Positions 1 to 35,751 of a DNA stretch of 35,751 bases are shown here, piece after piece. The position numbers and the translations under genes were made by a program. Under the pieces are notes generated by a model that did not search any database, was not told the DNA's origin, and was given only the letters and a program-made list of their open reading frames with translations. Position 1 is the first letter of the stretch; every line of letters begins with the position of its first letter. This DNA is from a virus (lineage: Duplodnaviria; Caudoviricetes). The stretch covers positions 1 to 35,751 of IMG/VR virus record IMGVR_UViG_3300044638_006439, one strand, 5' to 3'.

Positions 1-124
1 CCGTTGTTCTTTGTTTGGACGGTTAACACCATCCTCGCTCACGATCGCGACATTGCCGTGATGAAAATGCAAATCGCCATGCAGAGCGGTGGCAAGGGCA
101 ACATCTCCAACAGCATCAACATGG
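1..124 (+). repeat. Direct terminal repeat, copy 1 (circular assembly overlap)
   Basis: 1-124 (ccgttgttct...catcaacatgg) is identical to 35628-35751; an ORF reads in frame across the join. Confidence 0.97.
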
Positions 125-381
125 GCAACGCGGGGGCGGGCACCGAGATGGTGGACAGCGCCAAAACGTGGCTGACTACGAAGGATGTGGCTACTCGCGA
201 GGGCTGCGACGAGCGCACCGTCTTGAACTACATCGCGCGCGGCCAGATCGTGCCGATGCCTGAGAAGGATGGCAAGAGCTGGCGCATTTCCGCAGGTTTC
301 CGCATCATTCCGAATCCCGCCGAATCGGGCGGAAAGGTCGCAGCCAAGCTCCAACCTGAATGCGAGGAGGCCACGCCATGA
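1..381 (+). CDS. 3' part of a junction-spanning 151-aa protein: N-terminal TM segment plus C-terminal excisionase/MerR-like (HTH_17-type) winged HTH
   Basis: Continues the ORF starting at 35553; WLTTKDVATREGCDERTVLNYIARGQI...KDGKSWRI fits the HTH_17 pattern; stop overlaps next ATG (ATGA 378-381). Confidence 0.8.
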   Translation, partial: PLFFVWTVNTILAHDRDIAVMKMQIAMQSGGKGNISNSINMGNAGAGTEMVDSAKTWLTTKDVATREGCDERTVLNYIARGQIVPMPEKDGKSWRISAGFRIIPNPAESGGKVAAKLQPECEEATP

Positions 382-1022
382 GCCGTCGCGTCGTCTATTT
401 CATCCTGAACGGCATCCACACGAACCCGGCGCAGACGGACGGCTGGGTCGATGAGGCGGCAACGCTGCTCAACCGGCAGACGCCCGACTACGTGAAGCCT
501 GAAAAGTTCGAGTATTACACGACGGCGCTGACTCGCAGGCTGTTCCAGGCGCGCCGCGCGGAGAAGCTGCTGCACAAGGCGCTGGGCTACGCGGAGGACG
601 GCTGGACCGTCCGCATGATCGGGCACAGCAACGGCTGCGATTTGATCGCGCGTGTGGCGCTGGCGGCAGCAAAGAAGGAGATTCCAACGCTCCGACTGGA
701 TAGCGTCCACCTGATCGCCCCAGCTGCGGAGGATGCGGACTTCGCGCAAGCGGTGCAGTGCGGCGCGATTAGCCGCGTCCACATCTACGGCAGCGCAAAC
801 GACAAGGCGCTTCTGGCGGCTGGCCTGTCCGCGAAGCTGCTCAACTTTGTCGGCCTGGGCTTCGGATCGCTGGGCCTGCGCGGCAAGGCTTTGGCGGATC
901 GCTTTCCGGGCCGCGTCTTTGACCACTCGCGCGACCACTACGGGCATTCAACGTGGATCGGTCTCGCACTTCCGGGCACCGTCCGCGAAATTCTCGAACA
1001 TGACGAGATTCTAATTCCATGA
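378..1022 (+). CDS. Alpha/beta hydrolase fold serine esterase/lipase (DUF900-like)
   Basis: Nucleophile elbow GHSNG, VHLIAPA strand, candidate Asp in YGSAND and His in YGHS; ATGA coupling at both ends. Confidence 0.8.
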   Translation: MSRRVVYFILNGIHTNPAQTDGWVDEAATLLNRQTPDYVKPEKFEYYTTALTRRLFQARRAEKLLHKALGYAEDGWTVRMIGHSNGCDLIARVALAAAKKEIPTLRLDSVHLIAPAAEDADFAQAVQCGAISRVHIYGSANDKALLAAGLSAKLLNFVGLGFGSLGLRGKALADRFPGRVFDHSRDHYGHSTWIGLALPGTVREILEHDEILIP

Positions 1023-1144
1023 ACACGCTCCTCGACCTCGCCGCCATGTCGATGCCCGAAACGGGCGCGCGCATCATTCTATCTGGCGCGGTCATGATCG
1101 GCCTTGTTGTCGGGGCCTTCTACTACGCATCCAAAACGCCATGA
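1019..1144 (+). CDS. 41-aa single-TM peptide, candidate holin/lysis accessory
   Basis: Read by hand: MNTLLDLAAMSMPETGARIILSGAVMIGLVVGAFYYASKTP; ATGA overlaps with both neighbours. Confidence 0.7.
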   Translation: MNTLLDLAAMSMPETGARIILSGAVMIGLVVGAFYYASKTP

Positions 1145-1620
1145 GAACCAAGCGCACCATCGAAAACCTCGGCAGTCTGAACCGCAAGGCTCTTGCCAAA
1201 ATCGAGCCGTTCCTTGCGGAAGCAGAAGCCGCCATGTCCGCAAGGGGCGTTTCCATCGAAGTCATTTCCGGCCTGCGCTCATGGGCCGCGCAGGCGGCGC
1301 TTTATGCGCAGGGCCGAACCAAGTCGGGGCGCATCGTCACAAAGGCGCGGCCCGGATCGAGCTGGCACAACTTCGGCCTCGCTATCGACCTGGGCCTTTT
1401 CCGAAACGGCGTTTATCTGGACGAGAAACGGCCCGTCGATGCCGACAGGTTTTATGCTGAGATTGGCCGGATTGCCGCCAAGCATGGCGTCGAGTGGGCC
1501 GGAAACTGGAAGTCCTTCACGGAGACTCCGCACTTCCAAGTTACCTTTGGCCTCACGCTGGCGACGGCGCGTGAGCGCATGATTGCCGCCAACTACGACG
1601 TGCAAAAGGTCGTTCCTTGA
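1141..1620 (+). CDS. Endolysin, M15 family (L-Ala-D-Glu peptidase-like)
   Basis: SGLRS..Q..LYAQGRT, SWHNFGLAID (SxHxxGxAxD), WAGNW..FTETPHFQ. Confidence 0.92.
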   Translation: MRTKRTIENLGSLNRKALAKIEPFLAEAEAAMSARGVSIEVISGLRSWAAQAALYAQGRTKSGRIVTKARPGSSWHNFGLAIDLGLFRNGVYLDEKRPVDADRFYAEIGRIAAKHGVEWAGNWKSFTETPHFQVTFGLTLATARERMIAANYDVQKVVP

Positions 1621-1701
1621 AATGCACAAATGACAGCGTGCAAATGTGCCGCCTTGTGGCTTCCTTTGTGCGATTGGCCTAGTTCCCCACTGAAACGGAT
1701 C

Positions 1702-1717
1702 ACCCGCTATGCTCCAC
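1702..1717 (+). other. attP core: 3' end of tRNA-Ala (or tmRNA)
   Basis: ACCCGCTATGCTCCAC = T-stem 3' strand CCGCT + acceptor 3' strand ATGCTCC (U70 of the Ala G3:U70 pair) + discriminator A; followed by a terminator and the integrase. Confidence 0.75.
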
Positions 1718-1728
1718 TTCATCATTTC

Positions 1729-1751
1729 AGCCGCTTTCGAGCGGCTTTTTT
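1729..1751 (+). terminator. Intrinsic terminator
   Basis: AGCCGCT-TTCG-AGCGGCT followed by a T run. Confidence 0.85.
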
Positions 1752-1882
1752 GTGCCCGCGTTTGGGCTGTGTAGCTGGGAAAACGGCAAAATTACACGCC
1801 ATGTCATGCGGAATGACACGAAATGGCGCATTTGTGGCTTTTTTTGTGGCTCGCCTGTGGGCTTTGTGGCTACCGTTGTGGC

Positions 1883-3004
1883 ATGGCTTCTGTGTTTCAG
1901 CGAGGGCGTTCAGACGTGTGGATTGCGGCGTTTCGCGCCTGGGATGCTCGCGCCGGGAAATGGGTCTGGCGGCAGCAATCGACGGGCGTTCAGGACAAGG
2001 CGGCAGCGGCAGGCATTGCGGCTACGCTTGAGGCCGGATCGCAGGCCGCCAAGGCTGGCGTCCTGAATCGCGAGAAGGCTTTGCGGATGGTGAATGACAT
2101 CCTGCGGCTGGCGGGCCTCGATGAGCTGGCGGCAGCGCCAAGCCTTGCCAGCGTCGCGAAGGGGCTACTGGACGGCTCCGACGTGGCCGAGAGCACAGCG
2201 CGGAAGTATGCGGCGCAGTGGGCGGCGCTCGAAGCCTGGGCCGGTCCAAAAGCCGCGCAGCCGGTTACGGCCTGGACGGTCGAGACAATCGAGGCCTACT
2301 ATCTGGCGACCAAGGCCAAGTTCAGCGCCACGACGGCGAACGATCACCTGCGCTTTGTGGGCATGGTTTTCAGTCGGGCGGTCAAGCTGGGGCACCTGAC
2401 GAGCAATCCGGTGGATGCCGTCACGCGGGCGCGGAACGACTCCATCGACAAGGAGACGATCACGCGAGGCCAGCAAGCCGCAATCCTGCGGGCCATGCGC
2501 CGCGCCAAGCGCAAAGATTGGTGCTGCCTCGCCGCGCTGGGCTGGCATACCGGCCACCGCCTGCAAGACCTGCTCGACGCCACGACGGCCAACGGCGACC
2601 TGCTGACGCTCTCGCCGCGCAAAAAGGGCGGCAGGGGCCGCGAGGTCGTCTTGCCCTTGCCGCGATGGCTGGCGCGGCTTTTGTCGCGACTGGAGGGCTT
2701 CCAGACCATCGAGAAGGCCGACAACCGCAACGGGCGCGTGTCGGAGCAATTCATCGGCTGGCTTCGAGCCGCTGGCGTTGATCCTGTTCCGGTGCAGCGC
2801 GGGGCGCGGATCATTCATGCGCGGTCCTTCCATTCCTACCGGCACTCGATGGCCTCGCGCCTCGCTGCCGCTGGCGTGTCGGGCGAACTGGCGCGGCTTG
2901 TCACGGATCACGATTCCCCGAAGGTCGCGCGGCGCTACGTTCACGCGGAGGTTCAAGCCCTGCGCGAAGCCTTGGCAGCGGCCAGAATGCGCAAATCGTC
3001 GTGA
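1883..3004 (+). CDS. int: Tyrosine integrase
   Basis: Catalytic residues: TGHR, PRKK, HSYRH, TDHDS, RRYVH; start MASVFQRGRS at 1883 preferred because 1823-1882 is the arm-repeat DNA. Confidence 0.95.
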   Translation: MASVFQRGRSDVWIAAFRAWDARAGKWVWRQQSTGVQDKAAAAGIAATLEAGSQAAKAGVLNREKALRMVNDILRLAGLDELAAAPSLASVAKGLLDGSDVAESTARKYAAQWAALEAWAGPKAAQPVTAWTVETIEAYYLATKAKFSATTANDHLRFVGMVFSRAVKLGHLTSNPVDAVTRARNDSIDKETITRGQQAAILRAMRRAKRKDWCCLAALGWHTGHRLQDLLDATTANGDLLTLSPRKKGGRGREVVLPLPRWLARLLSRLEGFQTIEKADNRNGRVSEQFIGWLRAAGVDPVPVQRGARIIHARSFHSYRHSMASRLAAAGVSGELARLVTDHDSPKVARRYVHAEVQALREALAAARMRKSS

Positions 3005-3150
3005 CGGCGCATGTCTTCCCAAATGAGGTTTTCGACGTAGGACGAGAAGTTGCGGCGCTGTTCCTTGGCGATTCGCTGCCCGCCCTTGTGGATCGCGGCA
3101 TCAATCGAAATGGACGTATTGGTTTTCTTGTCGGGTCGAATGCTGGCCAT
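2953..3150 (-). CDS. Ribbon-helix-helix DNA-binding protein (65 aa)
   Basis: KKTNTSISID (ribbon) AAIHKGGQRIAKEQ RRNFSSYVENLIWEDM fits CopG/Arc pattern; TTGCAC 35 nt upstream of the ATG. Confidence 0.75.
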   Translation of the reverse strand: MASIRPDKKTNTSISIDAAIHKGGQRIAKEQRRNFSSYVENLIWEDMRRHDDLRILAAAKASRRA

Positions 3151-3151
3151 G

Positions 3152-3185
3152 CGTGGCATTTCGTGGCATTGTGCCACTTGTGCAA
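3152..3185 (-). promoter_or_regulatory. Promoter with tandem operator repeats AATGCCACG(A) upstream of the RHH gene
   Basis: Minus strand TTGCAC-aagtggcac-AATGCCACGA-AATGCCACG-c-ATG. Confidence 0.55.
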
Positions 3186-3241
3186 GTGTGAACTTGTGTT
3201 ACAATTTTGACGCGATGCTGTCCCGACCTTCAGCGCCTCGC

Positions 3242-3388
3242 CTATGGATGCCCGTCGCTTTGGCCCAAAGGGTGCAAGGCTGGCGGAGGTGGGAGATTTT
3301 CCAAAAGACCAGATCGACGCGCGCGCAAGACCAACAAGCCAGCGCAGAGCGTGGCAACCACGAAGGCGGGAATCATCCAAGGTTTCAT
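3242..3388 (-). CDS. 48-aa signal-anchor membrane peptide
   Basis: Read by hand: MKPWMIPAFVVATLCAGLLVLRARRSGLLENLPPPPALHPLGQSDGHP; starts 1 nt after the repressor stop. Confidence 0.55.
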   Translation of the reverse strand: MKPWMIPAFVVATLCAGLLVLRARRSGLLENLPPPPALHPLGQSDGHP

Positions 3389-3389
3389 G

Positions 3390-3713
3390 TTATGCGATGC
3401 AGTAGAGCAAGAGGCCCGCCAAGAAAAAGATCAGCGCCGATTTGATAACAGACTCAACCCATTGTTGCAGGGTTTGCCCCTGCGCCTCCGCCTTTTTCTG
3501 CATGGAGGCGAACTCATCAATTGAGAACATCGGCATAATGGAAGGCTGCTGTCTAAGCATCTTCCAGACCCAATCAGGGATGGGATTTTGGGCGTTTTCC
3601 CAAGCAATGACGGCGCTCTTAGAGCAACCGAGAAAAGCGGCGAGAGACTTCTGAGTATAGCCAAGCGACTTGCGTTCGGCTTGGAGTTTTGCGGCCTGTT
3701 TTTGGAGGTTCAT
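3390..3713 (-). CDS. XRE-family HTH repressor candidate with RHH-like middle and hydrophobic C-terminal tail
   Basis: RKSLGYTQKSLAAFLGCSKSAVIAWENAQNPIP is a typical XRE HTH; divergent from the early operon; ends ALIFFLAGLLLYCIA. Confidence 0.82.
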   Translation of the reverse strand: MNLQKQAAKLQAERKSLGYTQKSLAAFLGCSKSAVIAWENAQNPIPDWVWKMLRQQPSIMPMFSIDEFASMQKKAEAQGQTLQQWVESVIKSALIFFLAGLLLYCIA

Positions 3714-3798
3714 AGTTCTCGAATGTAATCAAAGTTACATCCGATACAACTTTTTATTTGACCAATGTTAGACCAGATGTAACTACTTCTTACACGCC
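3714..3798. promoter_or_regulatory. Divergent promoter/operator region (lysis-lysogeny switch)
   Basis: AT-rich; palindrome ATGTAA-N6-TTACAT (3723-3740); GATGTAAC at 3776-3783 is the inverse of 3734-3741; leftward TTGTAT-N16-TACATT; rightward TTGACC at 3758. Confidence 0.7.
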
Positions 3799-3969
3799 AT
3801 GGAACTACTCCTCAAGATCACAGAAAGCGACACGCTCAGCGCTGACGAAATCAGCGCGTTTCGCGACAAGGCCATACAGGCAGGCGCTAGCGCCGAATCC
3901 TTGCTGGCAAAACTCATCCGCGCGGAAATCGCCAAACCCTCCAAGACCAAGAAAGGAGCACGGAAATGA
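3799..3969 (+). CDS. Small basic protein, RHH-like, in the Cro position (56 aa)
   Basis: Read by hand: MELLLKITESDTLSADEISAFRDKAIQAGASAESLLAKLIRAEIAKPSKTKKGARK; ATGA-coupled to next gene. Confidence 0.65.
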   Translation: MELLLKITESDTLSADEISAFRDKAIQAGASAESLLAKLIRAEIAKPSKTKKGARK

Positions 3970-4130
3970 AGCTGACGCTTGAACTCCCTCCTGAGCTTTC
4001 GCGCTGGGTCAAAGCTGCTGCATCTCGCAGCAAGCACACGCCCGAAGCTGAAACGCTCTCCATGTTGAACTGGATTCACGCGGCCTCCGCTGCTGTGACG
4101 CCGAAGGCTAGAAAGGGCCGCAAGTCATGA
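3966..4130 (+). CDS. Arc-like RHH protein (54 aa)
   Basis: Read by hand: MKLTLELPPELSRWVKAAASRSKHTPEAETLSMLNWIH...; ATGA overlaps both sides. Confidence 0.7.
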   Translation: MKLTLELPPELSRWVKAAASRSKHTPEAETLSMLNWIHAASAAVTPKARKGRKS

Positions 4131-24957: not shown

Positions 24958-26486
24958 GCACTCGCTACCGTGACGGCCAGACTGCCTTTCTCGAATCCGG
25001 CGTTCAACCGCTGGAGACGGCTCGCGTTGCTGCGCCCACTGATGACATCGGGCGCGGCTTGATGAGCCTCGGGGCCAGTGGTGCCCGCGTGTTTGCGGAG
25101 TACACGCGAGTCAACGACGCCCGCGAACTGCTCGAAGCGGAGCAGGACATGCAGAAGGCCGCGAATGACTTTGCGGTTTTCCAGACCAAAAACACGAACG
25201 AAAAAACATGGCTTCCCGAGTGGCGGCGCATTAGCGGCGAACTCGAAAAGCGGAACGGGCAGCGCCAGCTTTCGGCGGATGGTCGTCTTTCGCTCGCGCA
25301 AGGCGTGGGCCGCTGGGCCACAAACCAAACGGGCCGCGTCCAAGAGCAGGCCTTGAAGCAAACCGCTGCACGCACCTTGCAGGCGGCTAAAAACACCATC
25401 AACGCCGCAATTGATAATGACGATCCAGACCGCGCCTTTGGAGCTATTCAGCTTTTGGAGACTTCCGGCGCGGCCTTTCCTGAGCAGGCAGAGGCGATGC
25501 GGCAAGATTTGACGCGCGCCCTCAAGACCAAGACGGCAGAAAAGGAGTTTGAGGAGCTTTCCATGATGGCGACGACCAACCCCGCAATGGCGCGCGAGTT
25601 GGCCGACGAGGGCGTAAAGTCCTCTCGCATCTCGGACCTGCAACGGTTCAAGATTAACGAAATGGCCGACCGTCAGGAGCAGCAAAACCGGACGGAGAGC
25701 TTTAACACGTTCCGCCGTCGCATCGGCGTTGGTGATTTGCCCTCTCCCGATGAACTCAAGGCCGACGCCTCCTTGACGGACCTCGACCGGCAAGAACTTG
25801 TCACGCTCGCGACCTCGCAGCCCTCAAATGACGAGGAGCTTTTCCAGCGTCAAATCACCGCCATTGGCTCGATGCCGTCGAATGCCGCGCCGTTGGAGCG
25901 CGCCAAGTATGAGGCCTTCCTCGAAGCCAATTTCAGCGGCCCGCATCTCGACCACCTGCGCAGCCTCTACGATGCGCGCTTTGCTTCTGGCGGCATGGAG
26001 GCAGTTCGCACGACAGAGGCCTTTCAGGCGCTCGACCGCTGGGCATTCGATGAGCAGCGCCTCGGCTCCTACAAAAAGCCGAAACTGGACGCGGAAGGAA
26101 AGCCGGTATTCAAGAAGAGAGAGGGCGTTTATTCCCTCGTTGAGGGCTGGTTTAGCTCTTCGCATGAAAAGCAGCCTGACACGTTCGAGCCTGACGAGGA
26201 AGTCGATCCCGCCGCGAAAGACAAGGTGATGACGCTTGTGTCGCAAATCAAAGAGACGCTTCGCGGCGAGATTTCCACCGGCAAGCTCACGGATTCGGCG
26301 GGAGTCTTTCGCCGCATGGCCGAGCTTGCCAAGATGCCGCTCACAGCAAAGGCCGCGAGCGAAGTCGATCCGCAGATGATGGGTATGCCCACTTCCGTCT
26401 CTGGCAGCCCTTCGACTCCAAGCCTCCTGCCTCCTGCCGACATTTCCGAAATCTTGAAACGCCATGCCCAGAATCCTCGAAAGTGA
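24954..26486 (+). CDS. Internal virion (ejection) protein, medium
   Basis: 510-aa helical protein in the ejection-protein position. Confidence 0.7.
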   Translation: MSTRYRDGQTAFLESGVQPLETARVAAPTDDIGRGLMSLGASGARVFAEYTRVNDARELLEAEQDMQKAANDFAVFQTKNTNEKTWLPEWRRISGELEKRNGQRQLSADGRLSLAQGVGRWATNQTGRVQEQALKQTAARTLQAAKNTINAAIDNDDPDRAFGAIQLLETSGAAFPEQAEAMRQDLTRALKTKTAEKEFEELSMMATTNPAMARELADEGVKSSRISDLQRFKINEMADRQEQQNRTESFNTFRRRIGVGDLPSPDELKADASLTDLDRQELVTLATSQPSNDEELFQRQITAIGSMPSNAAPLERAKYEAFLEANFSGPHLDHLRSLYDARFASGGMEAVRTTEAFQALDRWAFDEQRLGSYKKPKLDAEGKPVFKKREGVYSLVEGWFSSSHEKQPDTFEPDEEVDPAAKDKVMTLVSQIKETLRGEISTGKLTDSAGVFRRMAELAKMPLTAKAASEVDPQMMGMPTSVSGSPSTPSLLPPADISEILKRHAQNPRK

Positions 26487-29400
26487 AGCGCTCGCGCTCG
26501 CGCAAAACATCGACGCCATGAGCGACGATCTAAGGCCGCAAGCTCTCGACATCCTGACACGCTACAAAACGCAGCAAGAGGACTTCGGAGAGCCTGAGTG
26601 GCCGACGTATGCCAAACAGCAAGAGGAGGCGGAGCAGCGCTTTCGCTCCATGTTCGACAGCCTGAAGAACGTCGATAAAGCCGCTCCATCTCTGGTTGAA
26701 GCGCTCTCCTATGCTGAAAATCCAGATGCCGACCGCGCCCGCGTGGCAAACACGGCATTCTTATCCCGCGTCTATGGCAAGACGACGGACGAAATCAGCG
26801 GCTCGCTTGAGCTTTACCAAAGCGACTATGCCGCCAAGCGCGGGCAAAAGGCCGTCGATGACTTGGGCTTCTACAAGCTCGCAGCGGGTGAGGTTGCCGC
26901 CATGAAGCGGAAAGAGGAGACGGCGCTAGAGGGGGCGAAAGCGGCCCTTCGCGGGGAGGATGTGATTCAGTCGCTCCAAGCATGGCAGGCTAAGAACACC
27001 GACCGCATCCCTGATTCGACCGAGTTCGCGAAAGGTTACCTCAAAGCTAAAGACAGAGCGGGCGATTACCTGCCCATTGCCGACGAGCTTTTGAAGCTCA
27101 TGGAAAGCCAGACCGGGCAAAGCAATAGTACGCGAACCTTTGACGCGAAGGCGGCAGGCCGGATTGACGAGATTGCTGGCGATCTGGCAACGATGAAGCC
27201 TCGCGAGCGGAAGCAGATTTACGCCTCAATTGCGGCGCGAGCGGAGGCGGCTGGATACGATCAAAAAGGGTTTTGGTCACAAATGCTCGGCGAACTCGAC
27301 AAGGGGCTTTTACGTATGACTTCTACCGTCGGCACGACGGCAGGGATCGCTCTCGATGTGGTGAGCAATCTCCCGGCCATGCTCTCGAATACCATGAAGC
27401 CGGAAGAGTTCGACGCGACGGAGGCGAGTATTGCCCAGCGTCAGGCCCTCGGTGAAATCCATGATGAGCTTGCATCCATCGTATCCGGCGAGGTTGATCC
27501 CGTAAAGCCGACAATCGGCTGGCTCAATGACACCGTTGAAACGGGCCTCATCAAGGGGCCGGGAGCGGTTGCTCCATTCATGGCGGCAACGGCAGCGCTC
27601 GGACCATGGGGCGGCGGCATGCTCTTTACGGCTGATTTCGCAGAGCAGAACCGGCGCGATCTTCGAGCCGCTGGTTTGGACAATGACAGGGCCATTCAAA
27701 TCGGCGTCATGGCCGCGCCCCTACAAGCCGCCGTCGAATCGCTTTCGAACATGCTCCAGCTCGGCAGGTTCACGAAGCTGCAAACGGTTCTCGCTGGCTT
27801 TACGAGGCCAATCGGCGGAGGCGCTGGGCTGGCGCTTCGCTATGCTCAAAACGCGGGAATCTCGCTCGCTACCGAATACACGGAGGAACAGATTCAGGAT
27901 AATTTTATCGTGCCCGCAGTTCAGCAGATCGTCGGCGCTTTGGCTGCGGATGTGCCGGAAGTGGATTGGAGCTTCTACAAGACGCGAGCCGCTGAATCGA
28001 CGCCCGAATTGCTGTCCGTGCTCGCCCCCATGGCCCTCGTTTTTGGCGGAGTGATGACCGGTGCGCAGGCGAATCTCTCGCGGGTGATGACCAGTAACAT
28101 CGACGCACTCAAGGCCTTGAACTACTCGGAAGCGCAAGCCGTCGAAATCGTCGCGGAGAAGTCCGAAGATGCCCGAATCGCAAAAGCCTCGTCGCTTTGG
28201 GGTTCACGGGCCGGGGATAAAACGACACTGGAAGATGGCGCAAAGAGTCTGGCGTCACGCATGCGCCAGCTATCCGGCGACGTGGTAGCGCAGCAGCAGG
28301 AGCTTGAACGGCGCGGCATCCTGCCCCGCATGCTTCACGCCTCGGCCGATCAATGGCGGCTCACGTTTCAGGATGGCTCTACGGCTGCTTTCAATTCCCA
28401 TCGGGAAGCAGACGCGGCACGCTGGACGTGGACCGAGGATCAACTCGGCAAGGTTCACGCGCTCACCCGCGAAACGCTCGCCAGCCTGGAAAAGAATCTC
28501 GATGTGAACCGTGAGGTAGGCGTTCAGTTCTCGCCGAATGCCCGCACGGCACAGGACGCCGTGAACGACGGAGCGAGCGTGGATCAAATCAAGCAGCGCG
28601 TCGAACAGGGTAAAGCCCTTGGCGATCTGTCTCCAGATGCCGCCTTCGAAGATGCGCAGGCCATCGACAAGGCCACGGCTGAAACGGACGACTTTCTTTC
28701 GTCGCTCCAGATCCTCGGAAGCTCAAAAAACGAGTTCAAAGACGGCATTCTGCGCACAACGGTCAAGCTATGGGAAGGCTCCAACGTCCTCACGTTGGTA
28801 GAGGAAAAGATCGAGGGCGACGCCAAAGCCATCATTGCGGACGCAAAGGGCCGGGAATGGATGCTCTCCCGCCTCCGTGGTTACGAGGATGTCAGCGGCG
28901 ACAAGCTCTTTCGTGACGCTCCAGACGGTGAATTGAAAGATGACGACATCGTAGAGGCGTGGTCACACCTGGGGCAGTCCTACCTCGTCGGGCGTTCCAC
29001 CTTCGGAGAGCCGTTACAAAAGCGGACCATGCGCCGCTTTGGCCGTCTCCTGATGCGATCCGGCCTGACTGGCGCGATGAATGCCGAAAGCTCCTTCTTC
29101 GCCGCCGTCGCCAGCCGTGCACAAAAGCTCGGCGAACTGAAAAGCGCAGGCAAGCTCTCGGAGGATTTGGTGAGTGAGCTGGAAAAGCAGCTCGGCATCG
29201 ACTCGCAAGTTTCGCATGACGCGGCGGCGACCAAAGAAGCGGACGCCATCGCGGCGGAGGTCGTCGATACTTCCGGGTATTCGCCCGAGAATCCGGGGCC
29301 GAATGGCGAGACGTTTTCTCTCGCGGTGCAACAGCGTGGTGGTGTGCCGTTTAAGGCCGGGGATCGTGTTCGCTCTCTCGACTTTGAGGCTACTGTGTAT

Positions 29401-32400
29401 AGTGTGGAGCCACGGCAAAAGCTTGGGTATTGGGTAGTTTATACCGATGTGACCGGGGAGCCGGAATGGAAAAGCGAAGACAGAAGGGCGCTAAGTCCAT
29501 TTGCAAAGCCATTTGACGCCTACTCGGAGCCCGTGGAGATTGTTCGCCGTGGAAACGCCAGCCCAATACGGAACGAAGCCCTTGAAGCCCTCAAGGAAAC
29601 AGGGGGCGTCAGTGCTAAAGCCGACGTTCGCCAAATACCAATTCGTGAAGCGCCCAAAAGCAGCGTCAACTACACCGCCCCCAAAAGGAAGGGCGTAAAA
29701 GCTTCCTCCATTAAAGTTGGAGACATAATAGATTTGGGGGGCGCGCAAACCGTGACCTCGATCGAGCGGCGCGGTAGTGGATTTTTGTGGCTTGAGTTTG
29801 AAGGCGGGAACGCAGGTCTGTTTAGCGGTGATTCGCTCGTCAACCGCGCTTCTCGCGCCGTTCCTGCTGACGCCTCGAAGGTCGTCGAAATGCCGGACGG
29901 CGCGCAACTCGTCGGCCCTACGACGTTCTCAATTCGCGCCTACCACGGCACGCCGCACAAGGTCGATAAGTTCACGACGGCAAAAATCGGCACGGGCGAG
30001 GGTGCGCAGGCTTACGGCTGGGGGCTTTACTTTGCGGAGAACGAAGGAGTGGCAAGAAATTATCAGGAGCAGTTGAGGCCGCGCCAGCCGGACGATTATG
30101 ATTCGGCATTCACTGAAGCAGCCAAATCGTTCATTGCCTCAAACGGCAACGTCACGCTTGAGGATCTTCGTTCAGCGTATCCGAATGCCTCAACTGCTGC
30201 CCTTGAATGGGGAATGCGTGAAGCGCGAGGGCAAGAGCGCGGCAACCTCTACACCGTCGAACTCCTGCCGGACGAAGCTGATTTCCTCGATTGGGATAAG
30301 CCGCTGAGTGAGCAGAGCGATAAAGTGAAGGCGGCGCTGGCGAGCCTGCCAGAAAGCCCCGGAGATATTCAGCAGGCTATTGATTTGCTGACTCCACGCA
30401 TTGCTTTAGAAGGGCGGCAAGCTGGCCTTGCGCAAAAGCAGATCGACCAACTAAAAGTTCGTCTCGGCAATGTCAACGCAGGTAGTGGAGCGCAATTTTA
30501 TAACCGTCTTGGGGAAGCTGTGGCGGCCTCCGAAATGCTGGCGAAAGCTGGCATCCCCGGCATCCGCTACCTCGACGCTGGCAGTCGAGGTGCTGGCGAC
30601 GGCACTCGCAACTTTGTGATCTTCGACGAGAACCTTGTCCGCATTCTCGAAGAGAACGGGAGGCCGGTGGAGGGCGAAACCTTCTCCCTCCGCCCCGGCG
30701 ACTTCGAGAGCCGCATGGCCGCAAAATTCTCCCTCTTCCAAGCTAAGCCGGAACTTCGCCTTGCCATTGCGCAGGTAGCGAAAGAGCGAGCTTTGCGCCT
30801 TGGCGCTGAGTGGATCGCCAAGGGTGATGTAATCCGCACCGCGAAGGACATCGGCAAAGAGCAGGCATTCCGCGAGGCTGACGGCTTCGACCGGCGCATG
30901 ACGGCCTATCTCGACGGCCTCACGCCAAACGCACGGCAGACGCTGGAATTTGAGCCTTCCGCGCTCGAATCCGACCCGCTCGTCTCGGCGATGCTGGATG
31001 AGGGCAAATTAATGAGTCGAAGCACTGCTGTGAAAAACGGTGTGAAGAATCTGGATGAATACGACGGTGTTCCGTGGTTGCCTCCAGCGTGGTATTCAAA
31101 GGGCGCTGGAATCACTCCCGGCAAGATGGCGAAGGCGCTTCACGATGGGCCGCAGGATCAAGGCGGGCCGCTGCGTGGCGACTCGGCGCAAGACCTTTGG
31201 GATTCATTGGCCGAAGTCATTGCTTCCACGCGCAAAGACAAAGCTGCGCATCGTGAAGCCGTGCAGGCCTACAAGGACGCACAGAAAGCCGCGAAGGCAG
31301 ACGCTAAGGCAGAGGCGGAGGCCTGGGCGAATCAGGCCCGCAAGACAGCCGGAAGCCCAAAGGCGCAACGCGACATGCTGAAAGCGGCCCTGCGCACGCT
31401 TGACGGCATCCTTGCGGCGGCTCCTCCCGAAGTCCGCGCCCGTGTGGGCGGATACGTGAAGCTCGCAGGTCTGGCGACCGACGAAGCCATGCTGGCCGAA
31501 ATCGAACGCCGTATCGACAAAATGAACGTCGAGCTTGAGAAGTGGCTGAAAAAGGAAGGTCGCGCCGAACTGACGCGACTTTTCAAGAGGGCGGCCCCCA
31601 AGAACGAATCCGGCGAAAAGGCACAAGGCAAGATTGGCCCCGAGTTCCACGCATGGTTTGCCCTCGCGGAGTCGGCGGCGGAAATGTCGCCCGAAAAAGC
31701 CGACGAGGCTATCGTTGCGGCAGAGCAGGCCCTAGAGGCCGACGTTACCGACGCGCAGCTTGCGGGCTTGTCGGCATGGATGGGCCGCGAAGTCTCGGAT
31801 TTGGACGAGGCCCGGACCTTGCAGGACATTCGCCTTACAGTGCTTCAAACGTTCGGCAGCACCCTTTACAGCACGGACGCGCAAGCACCGCGCAACGCCG
31901 CCGAAATCATGGCAGCGGTCGATGCCGCCAAGGAGCAATACATCAAGGGCCGCGTGACTCATCTGGAAAAAATGGCGGCCCGTCGCGAGCGCCGTCAAGA
32001 ATGGCGCACCAAGGGCATTGCCTTGGTCGGCGGTGCCGCAACGGGCGATTCGGCGCGCGCCCAAATGGCCCGCAGTCCTTCCGACCTCAAGCGCCTTGCG
32101 TCGGACTACCTCGACACGGGCCTTGATGCCAGCGGCTTTTTCCGCTCACTCCTCGGGGAGGGCGACCTTTACCAGACCGTCCGGCGCTCCATCTTGGAGG
32201 CCGACGCCCAAGAGCAGGACGCCATGAAGGCGCGACGCGCTGAGTTTGCGAAGCTGCTCAAGACCACGTTTGCGGGCGGCAAAACGGCCCGCCTGCGCGG
32301 CCTTTGGGAATTGCAGCGAATCCAAGAGGGAACGCCGCTCGGCACCTTCTCGCAAATGCAGGCCGTGCAGTTCACGCTCTGGTTTCAAGACCTCGATTCC

Positions 32401-33975
32401 CGCGAATGGCTGGCCTCTCACGGCTACGGCGAGGAGTGGCAGGCCAAGGCGGAGAAATGGCTGACGCCAGAAGCCAAGAAAATCCGCGCATGGCTGCTCG
32501 AAAAATACGGCCAGCAATACGACCGCATCAACCCTGTTTTCCGCGAGCTGCGAGGCGTCAACCTGCCGCGCGTGGAGGCCTACGGCGGCATGCGCCAAGT
32601 CGAGAACATGGGCAAGGACGGAAGCGTTGCCCTCACGGCTGACAACATGGCGGGCGGCATGGCGGCGGGTTTCACAAAAACGCGTGTTTCGTCTCCAACG
32701 GGACCGCCTAAAAACGTCGATGCGCTGGCGAACTATTGGGGCAACGCCTTTCAGGTCGAGCACTACATCGCATGGGCTGAACCGTTGGCCGAAATTCGCG
32801 CCGTCGTGGGTCATCGTGACTTTCGCATGGCCGTAGAGTCCAACCTGGGCGCGGCCAAGAGCGCGCAAATGATGCGTTGGATCGACGACTTGGAGAAGTC
32901 CGGCCAGCGAAACGCCATCATGAACACCTTGAGCGGCGACTTGATGCAGCGATGGGGGAGCGCCGCCTCCGCGTCGGCCCTGTTGTTCAAGGTCGGGGTT
33001 CTGTTGAAGCAGGCAACCGCTGCGCTCGGTAGTGCCTTCAAGGTGGGCCTCGGCAGCTATGCGCGCAGTCTTGGCCGGGTGCTTTCAGGCGCTTCGTCGA
33101 TTTCGCTCCGCGAGGCGTGGAATAGCGACTCCGTGCAACGTCGTATCAATGACTATGATCCCGAGATGCGGGAAGCCTTTCAGGCGCACCAAAAGCGCCG
33201 GTTCGAGAACGAAATCCTTGATGTCCTGACCCAATACCCAAATCGAGCACTCGAAGGCGGATGGTATGCCATCGGGTTCACGGATGCGGTCTTCACGACC
33301 GTTAGCGCGGCGGTTGCGCATGACGCATCCTATCGTGAAGGACTGGCGGCAGGGCTGAACAACGAGCAGGCAATGGCCTACGCGGGCGAGCAAATGACCC
33401 TGATCGTCAAGGAGACAGCGCAACCCGACAGCACGGCGACGAAATCGCAGTTTGAAAACTCGGTTGGCAATCCTTGGCTCCGCGTCATTTTCGCCTTTCA
33501 GAGCGCGAACCGTCAGGCTTTCGGCCTGAGCCTGCTATCCTACAAGCACGGCGACAAGTTCGCTTCTCGCCTGATCCTCGGGCATCTCATTATCCCCATT
33601 GTCTCGCAGACCATCGGGAACATGATCCGCGACGGCTTTACGGATGCGGACGACGATGAAATCTGGACGCTCAAAGGCTATCTGGCCTCAATGCTTCTCG
33701 GGCCGTTCTCTGGTGCGTTGCAGCTTGGGCCGTTGCTCGAAGTGCTGGCGCAAAAAACATTCGGCGCTGAGCCGCGAGTTGCTTCAAATCCTGCGGCCAC
33801 GGCCCTTACGGCGCTTGGCTCCATTCTCGAAGGCGACTTTGACAGCGGCGACATTGGCCGGGTCGTTACGGAACTGGGCAACATTCTTGGCGGTCGAGCC
33901 TCGGCGACGGGCGCGGGCTGGAACATTATCCGCCAACTGCTCGGCTTGCAGGAGAACGCCGAAAACGACCAGTGA
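26464..33975 (+). CDS. Giant internal virion/polyvalent protein with ADP-ribosyltransferase-like domain
   Basis: 2503 aa; AYHGTPH.VDKF....IGTGEGAQAYGWGLYF...GIPGIRYLD..SR...TRNFVIFD at about 29938-30660; hydrophobic helices near both ends. Confidence 0.85.
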   Translation: MPRILESEALALAQNIDAMSDDLRPQALDILTRYKTQQEDFGEPEWPTYAKQQEEAEQRFRSMFDSLKNVDKAAPSLVEALSYAENPDADRARVANTAFLSRVYGKTTDEISGSLELYQSDYAAKRGQKAVDDLGFYKLAAGEVAAMKRKEETALEGAKAALRGEDVIQSLQAWQAKNTDRIPDSTEFAKGYLKAKDRAGDYLPIADELLKLMESQTGQSNSTRTFDAKAAGRIDEIAGDLATMKPRERKQIYASIAARAEAAGYDQKGFWSQMLGELDKGLLRMTSTVGTTAGIALDVVSNLPAMLSNTMKPEEFDATEASIAQRQALGEIHDELASIVSGEVDPVKPTIGWLNDTVETGLIKGPGAVAPFMAATAALGPWGGGMLFTADFAEQNRRDLRAAGLDNDRAIQIGVMAAPLQAAVESLSNMLQLGRFTKLQTVLAGFTRPIGGGAGLALRYAQNAGISLATEYTEEQIQDNFIVPAVQQIVGALAADVPEVDWSFYKTRAAESTPELLSVLAPMALVFGGVMTGAQANLSRVMTSNIDALKALNYSEAQAVEIVAEKSEDARIAKASSLWGSRAGDKTTLEDGAKSLASRMRQLSGDVVAQQQELERRGILPRMLHASADQWRLTFQDGSTAAFNSHREADAARWTWTEDQLGKVHALTRETLASLEKNLDVNREVGVQFSPNARTAQDAVNDGASVDQIKQRVEQGKALGDLSPDAAFEDAQAIDKATAETDDFLSSLQILGSSKNEFKDGILRTTVKLWEGSNVLTLVEEKIEGDAKAIIADAKGREWMLSRLRGYEDVSGDKLFRDAPDGELKDDDIVEAWSHLGQSYLVGRSTFGEPLQKRTMRRFGRLLMRSGLTGAMNAESSFFAAVASRAQKLGELKSAGKLSEDLVSELEKQLGIDSQVSHDAAATKEADAIAAEVVDTSGYSPENPGPNGETFSLAVQQRGGVPFKAGDRVRSLDFEATVYSVEPRQKLGYWVVYTDVTGEPEWKSEDRRALSPFAKPFDAYSEPVEIVRRGNASPIRNEALEALKETGGVSAKADVRQIPIREAPKSSVNYTAPKRKGVKASSIKVGDIIDLGGAQTVTSIERRGSGFLWLEFEGGNAGLFSGDSLVNRASRAVPADASKVVEMPDGAQLVGPTTFSIRAYHGTPHKVDKFTTAKIGTGEGAQAYGWGLYFAENEGVARNYQEQLRPRQPDDYDSAFTEAAKSFIASNGNVTLEDLRSAYPNASTAALEWGMREARGQERGNLYTVELLPDEADFLDWDKPLSEQSDKVKAALASLPESPGDIQQAIDLLTPRIALEGRQAGLAQKQIDQLKVRLGNVNAGSGAQFYNRLGEAVAASEMLAKAGIPGIRYLDAGSRGAGDGTRNFVIFDENLVRILEENGRPVEGETFSLRPGDFESRMAAKFSLFQAKPELRLAIAQVAKERALRLGAEWIAKGDVIRTAKDIGKEQAFREADGFDRRMTAYLDGLTPNARQTLEFEPSALESDPLVSAMLDEGKLMSRSTAVKNGVKNLDEYDGVPWLPPAWYSKGAGITPGKMAKALHDGPQDQGGPLRGDSAQDLWDSLAEVIASTRKDKAAHREAVQAYKDAQKAAKADAKAEAEAWANQARKTAGSPKAQRDMLKAALRTLDGILAAAPPEVRARVGGYVKLAGLATDEAMLAEIERRIDKMNVELEKWLKKEGRAELTRLFKRAAPKNESGEKAQGKIGPEFHAWFALAESAAEMSPEKADEAIVAAEQALEADVTDAQLAGLSAWMGREVSDLDEARTLQDIRLTVLQTFGSTLYSTDAQAPRNAAEIMAAVDAAKEQYIKGRVTHLEKMAARRERRQEWRTKGIALVGGAATGDSARAQMARSPSDLKRLASDYLDTGLDASGFFRSLLGEGDLYQTVRRSILEADAQEQDAMKARRAEFAKLLKTTFAGGKTARLRGLWELQRIQEGTPLGTFSQMQAVQFTLWFQDLDSREWLASHGYGEEWQAKAEKWLTPEAKKIRAWLLEKYGQQYDRINPVFRELRGVNLPRVEAYGGMRQVENMGKDGSVALTADNMAGGMAAGFTKTRVSSPTGPPKNVDALANYWGNAFQVEHYIAWAEPLAEIRAVVGHRDFRMAVESNLGAAKSAQMMRWIDDLEKSGQRNAIMNTLSGDLMQRWGSAASASALLFKVGVLLKQATAALGSAFKVGLGSYARSLGRVLSGASSISLREAWNSDSVQRRINDYDPEMREAFQAHQKRRFENEILDVLTQYPNRALEGGWYAIGFTDAVFTTVSAAVAHDASYREGLAAGLNNEQAMAYAGEQMTLIVKETAQPDSTATKSQFENSVGNPWLRVIFAFQSANRQAFGLSLLSYKHGDKFASRLILGHLIIPIVSQTIGNMIRDGFTDADDDEIWTLKGYLASMLLGPFSGALQLGPLLEVLAQKTFGAEPRVASNPAATALTALGSILEGDFDSGDIGRVVTELGNILGGRASATGAGWNIIRQLLGLQENAENDQ

Positions 33976-34156
33976 CAAGGCATCCGGTGCCGTAGCCGGT
34001 GGCGAGAATGCCGGGAAGCACGGCGAGGCATCCGATGATGCCCTTGCCGGTGCCCTTGCGCATCGTCCCATCCAACGTGTCCCGGCTCGCGTCCGCGCCA
34101 AGCAGGAACACGACGGGAAGCCAGAAGAGAAACCAGAAGGTGAGCCAGATTTTCAC
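33926..34156 (-). CDS. Small two-TM membrane protein (moron, superinfection-exclusion candidate)
   Basis: GTG start; IWLTFWFLFWLPVVFLLG and GIIGCLAVLPGILATGYGTGCLV; own promoter GTGACA-N17-CAGACT (34191-34163). Confidence 0.6.
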   Translation of the reverse strand: MKIWLTFWFLFWLPVVFLLGADASRDTLDGTMRKGTGKGIIGCLAVLPGILATGYGTGCLVTGRFRRSPASRAVGG

Positions 34157-34250
34157 GCCGCAAGTCTGCCCGACCGCCTGCCCGCTGTCACGTCAAAAAT
34201 GCCCGTAGCCGGGACTTGACACGCCCGCGCCCGTTTCCCCGAAGTTGCGC

Positions 34251-35230: not shown

Positions 35231-35547
35231 TCCGAGGTCTTATCCTCATCCTGGCAGAGCATTTACCCAGTGCGCGGGCGCTGGCGACTACCGCTCCTTT
35301 CAGTCTGACGGAGGAAGAGGCGGCCAATCTGTTTGTGCCGGCAGGCAGCCCGTCTGGAGATGGGCCCGCCACGCACTACTGGGCCGCAGGACTTTTTACC
35401 CCCACGCATTGGAGCGCCATTCAAGGGCTCGCCATGCTGCTGCCGTGGGCCGATTGTCAGGCTTACGACATCGCCACCCAACCGGATTTTCCCGACACGC
35501 AACTGGCCGTTTTGGGCCTGCAACGATGGAAAGGAGACATGTCGTGA
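35227..35547 (+). CDS. Hypothetical protein (possible fibre partner)
   Basis: 106 aa, ATGA-coupled; F...LS.type G..PATHYW motif. Confidence 0.7.
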   Translation: MIRGLILILAEHLPSARALATTAPFSLTEEEAANLFVPAGSPSGDGPATHYWAAGLFTPTHWSAIQGLAMLLPWADCQAYDIATQPDFPDTQLAVLGLQRWKGDMS

Positions 35548-35552
35548 GCATT

Positions 35553-35751
35553 ATGGACGACAACCAAGAAATCATCAAACTGGGGACGGTTCATGGGTGG
35601 GTATTCAAAATTTCTCTGTGGGCAGCTCCGTTGTTCTTTGTTTGGACGGTTAACACCATCCTCGCTCACGATCGCGACATTGCCGTGATGAAAATGCAAA
35701 TCGCCATGCAGAGCGGTGGCAAGGGCAACATCTCCAACAGCATCAACATGG
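35553..35751 (+). CDS. 5' part of the junction-spanning TM + HTH protein
   Basis: MDDNQEIIKLGTVHGWVFKISLWAAPLFFVWTVNTILAH...; alternative GTG start at 35544 overlaps upstream stop. Confidence 0.8.
   Translation, partial: MDDNQEIIKLGTVHGWVFKISLWAAPLFFVWTVNTILAHDRDIAVMKMQIAMQSGGKGNISNSINM
35628..35751 (+). repeat. Direct terminal repeat, copy 2
   Basis: Identical to 1-124. Confidence 0.97.

Follow-up and report, generated by a model that had tools for sequence, protein, structure and literature searches.

The window, by which we mean the whole 35,751-nt stretch of viral DNA analyzed here, belongs to an IMG/VR record of the direct terminal repeats class. Its first 124 nt (1-124) recur exactly at its end, and the contig closes to a complete, circular genome of 35,627 bp of a temperate, podophage-like virus, in which portal, capsid, nozzle, internal virion proteins and an integrase are recognized. 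Across the closing point runs a gene that joins a predicted membrane anchor to a winged helix-turn-helix (wHTH) domain and precedes an endolysin; an array of short repeats lies within the 3' end of the gene itself. The key features are summarized in Table 1. Elsewhere in the genome, the virion module encodes a 2503-aa protein (26464-33975) with a weak ART-PolyVal match (E=1.4e-5, below the cut-off) that is likely an ejected polyvalent protein, and the reverse strand contains a moron-like 161-aa ORF (33678-34163) with a hydrophobic start and no family match.

Table 1. Features of the anchor-wHTH gene and the adjoining lysis cassette (window coordinates).
Feature	Position	Strand	Basis or remark
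AGGAG ribosome-binding site of the GTG start	35532..35536	+	sequence
Anchor-wHTH gene, 5' part, residues 1-28 (type-A N-tail, first half of hydrophobic segment)	35544..35627	+	
Terminal repeat, copy of 1-124 (assembly overlap)	35628..35751	+	exact sequence identity
Anchor-wHTH gene, 3' part, residues 29-154	1..381	+	
Membrane segment (predicted), second half; residues 23-41 are 35610-35627 plus 1-39	1..39	+	hydropathy; helix 15-57 in model
Short predicted coiled coil after the anchor	40..84	+	only a loose RhxxhE match here
Beta-type motif, S-V-x-V/I-G class, conserved; start of swapped module	103..126	+	
Winged HTH, lambda-Xis/BldC class, residues 85-132	169..312	+	profile, structure; recognition helix 211-231, wing 265-282
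Array of five near-palindromic 7-mers, 10-nt period, starts 288, 298, 308, 318, 328; inside CDS; candidate binding site	288..334	.	
Alpha/beta-hydrolase-like gene, optional neighbor	378..1022	+	weak DUF900 and Ser_hydrolase matches
41-aa single-TM peptide before endolysin	1019..1144	+	
M15 peptidase endolysin	1141..1620	+	

An earlier, sequence-only reading of this DNA held that the gene is split by the contig end, and the joined frame from ATG 35553 indeed translates to the 151 aa that it gave. The circular junction on which this frame depends is confirmed by an independent contig (L017) that is 100% identical over 3023 nt across it; contigs of runs X2, X3 and X4 also extend past window position 1, and the gene is unsplit in 12 IMG/VR loci that were retrieved with its C-terminal part. 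The anchor-wHTH gene is intact. Its start is probably GTG 35544, for a protein of 154 aa, instead of the ATG, because AGGAG lies 7 nt upstream, the GTG overlaps the stop codon of the upstream gene (GTGA) and the relatives use the same start. An internal start yielding a soluble wHTH protein was considered and rejected, as no start is common to the relatives and the codons of the beta-motif vary synonymously. No sigma-70-like promoter was found in positions 1-4000. One metatranscriptome has contigs covering 1-125 and 250-730, which attests to the presence of the sequence and is not a transcription result.

By sequence profiles and by the structural model, the C-terminal domain is a wHTH of the lambda-Xis/BldC class. 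The HTH_17/MerR-like assignment proposed earlier is borne out by an HTH_17 match at E=4.7e-7 (30.4 bits against a curated cut-off of 27), and profile and structure searches place the domain closest to lambda/HK022 Xis, with BldC next, by sequence as well as structure. The best PDB profile matches are Xis (E=7e-5) and BldC (E=0.006), the top Foldseek matches are Xis (TM-score by target 0.80-0.84, E about 4e-3 to 3e-2), and the VIA-align Z scores are a middling 5.8 (Xis) and 5.1 (BldC); such fold scores are modest, as expected at 50 residues. The basic residues of the helix and wing are kept among 154 aligned sequences (R100 in 146, T101 in 131, K/R117 in 127 and K/R120 in 143). An equivalent of the base-reading Arg30 of BldC is missing, the aligned position 104 being variable (N/D/T/S/E), and a conserved Arg aligns with the position of BldC Lys26.

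A profile search against 1.84 billion representatives yielded 147 matches. Of these, 115 were combined with 15 of the 35 matches from another search into an alignment of 130 rows; the 32 left out comprise the window's own entry, proteins that are truncated or consist of the anchor only, long proteins with several HTH domains, and Xis-like proteins that are small and soluble. The family thus includes at least 130 divergent proteins from phages and from prophage copies in Verrucomicrobiaceae, of which 114 match HTH_17 at E<=0.01 and 47 match the Exc family. The link to the host comes from a match within a Verrucomicrobiaceae MAG; 3 of 145 Verrucomicrobiaceae genomes contain a family match, and there are none more among 401 genomes sampled from the order. 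Near-identical DNA is present in lake and freshwater metagenomes, the 50,697 GenBank phage records contain no match, and the ESM Atlas gave no usable match for two family members.

The same wHTH module follows three types of N-terminal anchors, sorted by eye. Type A (n=57), the type of the window, consists of a short acidic tail, a TM segment and a short coiled coil; type B (n=19) is an XhlA-like coiled coil followed by the TM; type C (n=54) is a shorter form of B, with a few atypical rows. XhlA (PF10779) is matched by 3 of the 130 proteins, all of type B (best E=2e-4), within generally weak XhlA/hemolysin matches for this type, and no XhlA match was found for the window's type-A anchor. The hydrophobic helix noted in the earlier reading is upheld as a hydropathy-based prediction of moderate strength (best 19-residue Kyte-Doolittle mean 1.62), and 121 of 130 members have a hydrophobic segment (21-residue mean of at least 1.4). 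Strict matches to the RhxxhE motif number 70 among the 130 members and 2.0 in shuffled sequences; the available passages of a study of this motif describe it as enriched in trimers, yet also present in dimers (PMC13060782). A homotrimer prediction scored 0.13 against a mark of 0.42, which is evidence in neither direction.

Ahead of the wHTH, 105 of 130 members have the beta-type motif, which appears to mark the seam at which anchors are exchanged. A type-A and a type-B protein (P0046 and P0070) are 92% identical over their 71 C-terminal residues, and in a pair of sibling prophages one slot is filled by an A anchor in one and a B anchor in the other, their DNA becoming similar again at the beta-motif. 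No specific pairing of anchor and holin is evident, because these siblings exchange anchor types yet keep the downstream genes. A quick tree of the wHTH compared with anchor type (108 of 130 rows) is poorly resolved. One lone sequence, P0037, retains the anchor and the array-coded tail with 29 wHTH residues deleted, and may be an assembly error.

A two-gene arrangement was also rejected. No relatives of 30-77 aa, the size of an anchor-less soluble form, or of 302-2000 aa were found with the type-A alignment (weak negatives, with 78-83 and about 270-301 aa outside the range), and no separate wHTH gene lies near either of two anchors that lack the domain. None of the contrary findings foreseen in the sequence-only reading appears, since an N-terminal membrane anchor and an Xis-like wHTH in a single frame beside endolysins form a conserved architecture.

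The genomic context was surveyed in 31 loci returned by id-based searches, 25 of them with at least 2 kb downstream; type B is represented by only 3 loci with DNA. An endolysin homologue lies within 1.4 kb downstream in 23 of the 25, and the other two have an unclassified candidate; the endolysin classes include M15, amidase_3, CHAP, lysozyme and PG_binding_3. At L046 (10756-11358) and L055 (10847-11437), the gene in the endolysin position has no Pfam match and is a candidate peptidoglycan hydrolase. In the window, ATGA overlaps to the hydrolase, the TM peptide and the endolysin are present, as the earlier report of translational coupling would have it. An alpha/beta-hydrolase in the lysis cassette of a phage of a Gram-negative host is seen in 7 of the 31 loci. 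In many loci, a single-TM peptide of 28-41 aa directly precedes the endolysin regardless of its class and is a candidate minimal holin or release factor.

The description of the gene product as a holin-position membrane protein stands as far as position is concerned, that is, as a TM protein in a lysis cassette; that it is the holin itself does not follow. No holin profile matches the window protein, and in the window no multi-TM holin or spanin is recognized, only the 41-aa TM peptide. Multi-TM holin-like genes, with no confident profile match, lie downstream in many type-A and type-B loci and upstream in type C. A role as a lysis accessory is likelier because these separate genes flank the anchor-wHTH gene in many loci and because wHTH-less anchors exist; the anchor-wHTH protein is probably not itself the holin. 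In three type-C loci (L040:5616-6035, L059:4559-5011 and L063:1890-2276), an unclassified 2-3-TM gene, a holin candidate, overlaps the start of the anchor-wHTH gene by about 30-35 nt.

The repeat array had gone unnoticed in the earlier reading. In the window, four CCG[CA]A motifs follow each other at exact 10-nt steps (290-324), the sole chain of at least three in the genome, and 200 order-4 Markov simulations produced no such chain. The unit seen across loci, T[GT]C[CG]G[CA]A followed by 3 nt, is nearly palindromic and is present in 4-6 copies whose orientation flips between phages; 2-47 nt separate the end of the array from the stop codon. Its codons depart sharply from those for the same residues elsewhere in the gene, which served as the control: P132 is CCG in 18/18 versus 8/18 at P113 (18 loci), E136 is GAA in 14/15 versus 0/16 at E99, and G139 is GGA in 13/14 versus 0/18 at G119. 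With the protein fixed and the scoring matrix trained on the other anchor types, the arrays exceed synonymously resampled codons in 26 of 26 loci (p 0.0002-0.022), which are related, several type-C ones closely, and so do not amount to 26 independent events. The array is under synonymous constraint. Because of this codon usage, the array accounts for the conserved residues of the protein tail, and the tail residues do not account for the array; purifying selection of this strength suggests that a genome gains from carrying the array. Variants in lake populations affect three array positions, all in spacers or at the C/A position. RNA structure was tried as an explanation and rejected, given a consensus fold of only -3.0 kcal/mol with 8 pairs and an unfavorable covariation term.

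In each of 7 whole phage contigs, scanned with their own row left out of the matrix and relatives kept, the array of the gene scores highest (20.0-34.3 versus 5.3-13.1 for the other arrays listed). In the 145 host-family genomes, the full-length matches are the three training genes only, and 29 other genomes have partial matches of at most 20.2 bits; no full array was found in the remaining 142 genomes among 40 candidates scored per genome. Two prophage cassettes lack the wHTH, one of type A (L097) and one of type B (L100, 66% identical to the anchor of L039), and retain the anchor together with a holin-like gene and a predicted endolysin. No array is present within about 1.5 kb of either (scores 3.1 and 0.5), and wider scans of the two loci gave at best 13.0 and 17.3, compared to 19.9-37.4 for the training arrays. 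The borderline score of 17.3, from two good units 20 nt apart inside an integrase gene (L105:4737-4776), is probably due to chance. In one of these wHTH-less cassettes, a multi-TM holin-like region is fused to an astacin-like peptidase (L100:1825-3000, E=4.9e-5).

Known relatives of the domain bind comparable sites. In the available passages, BldC is described as binding CAATTCGGAC repeats head-to-tail, with one protomer per repeat (PMC5859096), and Gp36 of phage D29 as requiring GCGGC repeats (PMC12266134). Read on the opposite strand, the window's units give ATTCGGAA, and GCGGC is the core of the type-B/C units, so that the array units contain both cores. Given the co-occurrence of array and wHTH and this likeness to the BldC and Gp36 sites, the protein's own wHTH is, by analogy, probably what binds the array. 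The proposal that the domain reads DNA gains strength from a candidate cognate array within the same gene; it may do so on either the cytoplasmic or the periplasmic side of the membrane.

It is rather improbable that another phage or host protein reads the array and that the wHTH is a protein-interaction or non-specific DNA-binding domain. In favor of this, the covariation between recognition helix and site shows in raw counts (N104 with a unit variant in 24/33 versus 4/66), with only 2 independent pairs on supported branches, and phage exclusion proteins exposed at the surface, such as Ltp, act on proteins according to the title of a work cited in PMC3952083. Ltp has an HTH fold. Against a separate reader, the array is missing from the two cassettes in which the wHTH is missing, is not found in full among the 40 candidates scored in each of the 142 other host-family genomes and coexists with conserved DNA-contact positions.

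The Xis-like fold also raises the option, voiced in the earlier reading, of a membrane-tethered recombination directionality factor for the neighboring integrase. Lambda Xis is the closest fold, Exc matches are frequent in the family, the integrase follows the window's cassette, the same profile finds no other clear Xis-like gene in the window, and integrases are encoded in 4 of 5 further near-complete genomes. However, an integrase lies within 4.5 kb in just 7 of 25 loci, the gene occupies a late-operon position, and a 92% complete genome (G004) contains the gene and no integrase match. Furthermore, the array lies 1.3 kb from attP-like repeats, with none in 1620-1885. We consider this option highly improbable. 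The attP-like repeats are seven copies of TTGTG[GC] between endolysin and integrase (1654-1885), which differ in motif from the array and are likely the integrase arm sites. In a close relative, a mere fragment of the window's integrase follows a different (CHAP) endolysin (L019:9753-10190).

The orientation of the protein bears on the remaining readings. K+R residues are more numerous before the TM than after it in 14 of 19 anchors of type B and 50 of 54 of type C (64 of 73 together), a bias that predicts from sequence a wHTH outside the inner membrane (N-in/C-out). By net charge, type B points the opposite way (15 of 19), and type A is ambiguous (17 with more before, 15 equal and 25 with more after the TM). 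A single orientation is likely because the wHTH module moves between anchors, and the inside is favored by how strongly selection acts on a site that the carrier has in its own genome. Possibly, the wHTH reaches the cytoplasm via an anchor of the re-entrant kind; a proline lies in the middle of the type-A segment, but the structural model shows a straight helix.

If the charge bias is followed, the protein would be a periplasmic DNA sensor that reads the array on superinfecting DNA and delays lysis, the gene being tag and reader at once. The XhlA matches of type B fit this reading, as does the proposal, in the passages available, that the T4 T/RI complex is stabilized by periplasmic DNA (PMC11413866; bioRxiv 10.1101/2025.11.12.688109). 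We nevertheless find this reading unlikely: a tag read only by other cells would bring no direct benefit to its carrier and fits poorly with constraint in every locus tested, a single 50-bp site in 35-42 kb makes for a sparse signal, a motif common to distant phages is not kin-specific, and the net charge of type B contradicts the bias.

With a cytoplasmic wHTH, the protein could instead be a membrane-tethered autoregulator that acts on the array as a transcription roadblock and limits read-through to the lysis genes, the anchor only localizing or sensing. The array is indeed placed just before the stop codon and, in 23 of 25 loci, has the endolysin downstream of it; D29 Gp36 is described as a repressor of the genes that follow its site (PMC12266134), and CadC and ToxR show that membrane-bound regulators are workable (PMC5430869 for CadC). 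This too is doubtful, given that the multi-TM holin-like gene of type-C loci lies upstream of the array, that deletion of Gp36 is described as leaving lysis timing unchanged (PMC12266134, in part), that repression does not call for an anchor, whereas the 30-77 aa search yielded no form without one, and that the charge bias places the wHTH outside in types B and C.

The reading that we prefer, and put forward tentatively, is a DNA-held brake on lysis, in which the wHTH, bound to the array of free phage genomes, would keep a lysis-accessory anchor in check for as long as packaging has not taken the sites away. The wHTH would face the cytoplasm and bind the array on unpackaged genomes with 4-6 subunits, one per helical turn, so that the bound anchors would be held in small DNA-bound clusters. 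The anchor would be a lysis accessory of the XhlA/hol-like kind, and DNA binding would delay, not promote, lysis, the direction of the effect being a guess. Packaging would then remove the array sites, free the anchors and allow lysis; accessory anchors, which also exist without the wHTH, would have acquired a DNA input. If 50-200 genomes are assumed late in infection, the free ones, with 4-6 sites each, could together bind from a few hundred up to roughly a thousand subunits.

The brake is supported by the fusion, the fold class, the position before the endolysin, the anchor swapping, the constraint on the array, the presence of one array per genome and its absence from the wHTH-less cassettes; the type-B/C charge bias, the variable Arg30 position and the number of wHTH-less controls, only two, speak against it. 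Stated more broadly, the locus could quite possibly be a one-gene genome counter, since the same 460 bp encode the protein and its candidate binding array: the number of free genomes, or array-bearing DNA from outside, would set the state of a membrane lysis protein and couple lysis to packaging or to phage density.

Holin timing is usually held to be independent of virion assembly, and a DNA signal to the lysis machinery has been proposed mainly for T4, with the site left undefined. Where a membrane protein of the lysis module comes with a defined array, silent mutations can test whether phage DNA itself gates lysis, and a small wHTH module grafted onto three anchors opens up lysis control in Verrucomicrobia phages, for which the literature searched contains no study. 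The titles and abstract openings searched in the open full-text literature, which takes in few subscription journals, contain no description of this fusion or array.

Among the known systems, lambda/HK022 Xis, BldC and D29 Gp36 share the fold and the wing signature (MerR-like, HTH_17/Exc), and BldC and Gp36 have similar repeat cores, BldC placing one subunit per repeat. These proteins are small and soluble, and their sites lie in promoters or att regions, whereas here a membrane anchor precedes the wHTH, and the protein's own CDS contains the candidate site, a 10-nt tandem array with about one unit per helical turn. XhlA-like and hol-like accessories likewise combine a coiled coil and a single TM at the head of a lysis module, and wHTH-less relatives of the anchor fill the same slot, but a DNA-binding domain or array is not known there. 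Phi29 p16.7 and Bacillus subtilis RacA also tie DNA to the envelope, although neither belongs to a lysis cassette; p16.7 acts early and binds DNA non-specifically, and RacA, which has the same MerR-like fold and gives weak matches, is without a TM. The T4 holin T and antiholin RI resemble the window protein as single-TM lysis proteins with a soluble domain and DNA as the proposed signal, but they are two genes, the available passages on T4 name no defined DNA site, and neither is among the profile, Foldseek or VIA-align matches of the wHTH protein. ToxR and CadC also combine a single TM with a winged HTH in one polypeptide (PMC5430869 for CadC); they have an N-terminal OmpR-type wHTH and a periplasmic sensor, in contrast to the C-terminal Xis-type wHTH and the lack of a large sensor here. 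The architecture fails or falls short of membership in each known kind tested, and what is new is a conserved array of 10-nt period in the 3' end of a lysis-cassette anchor-wHTH gene.
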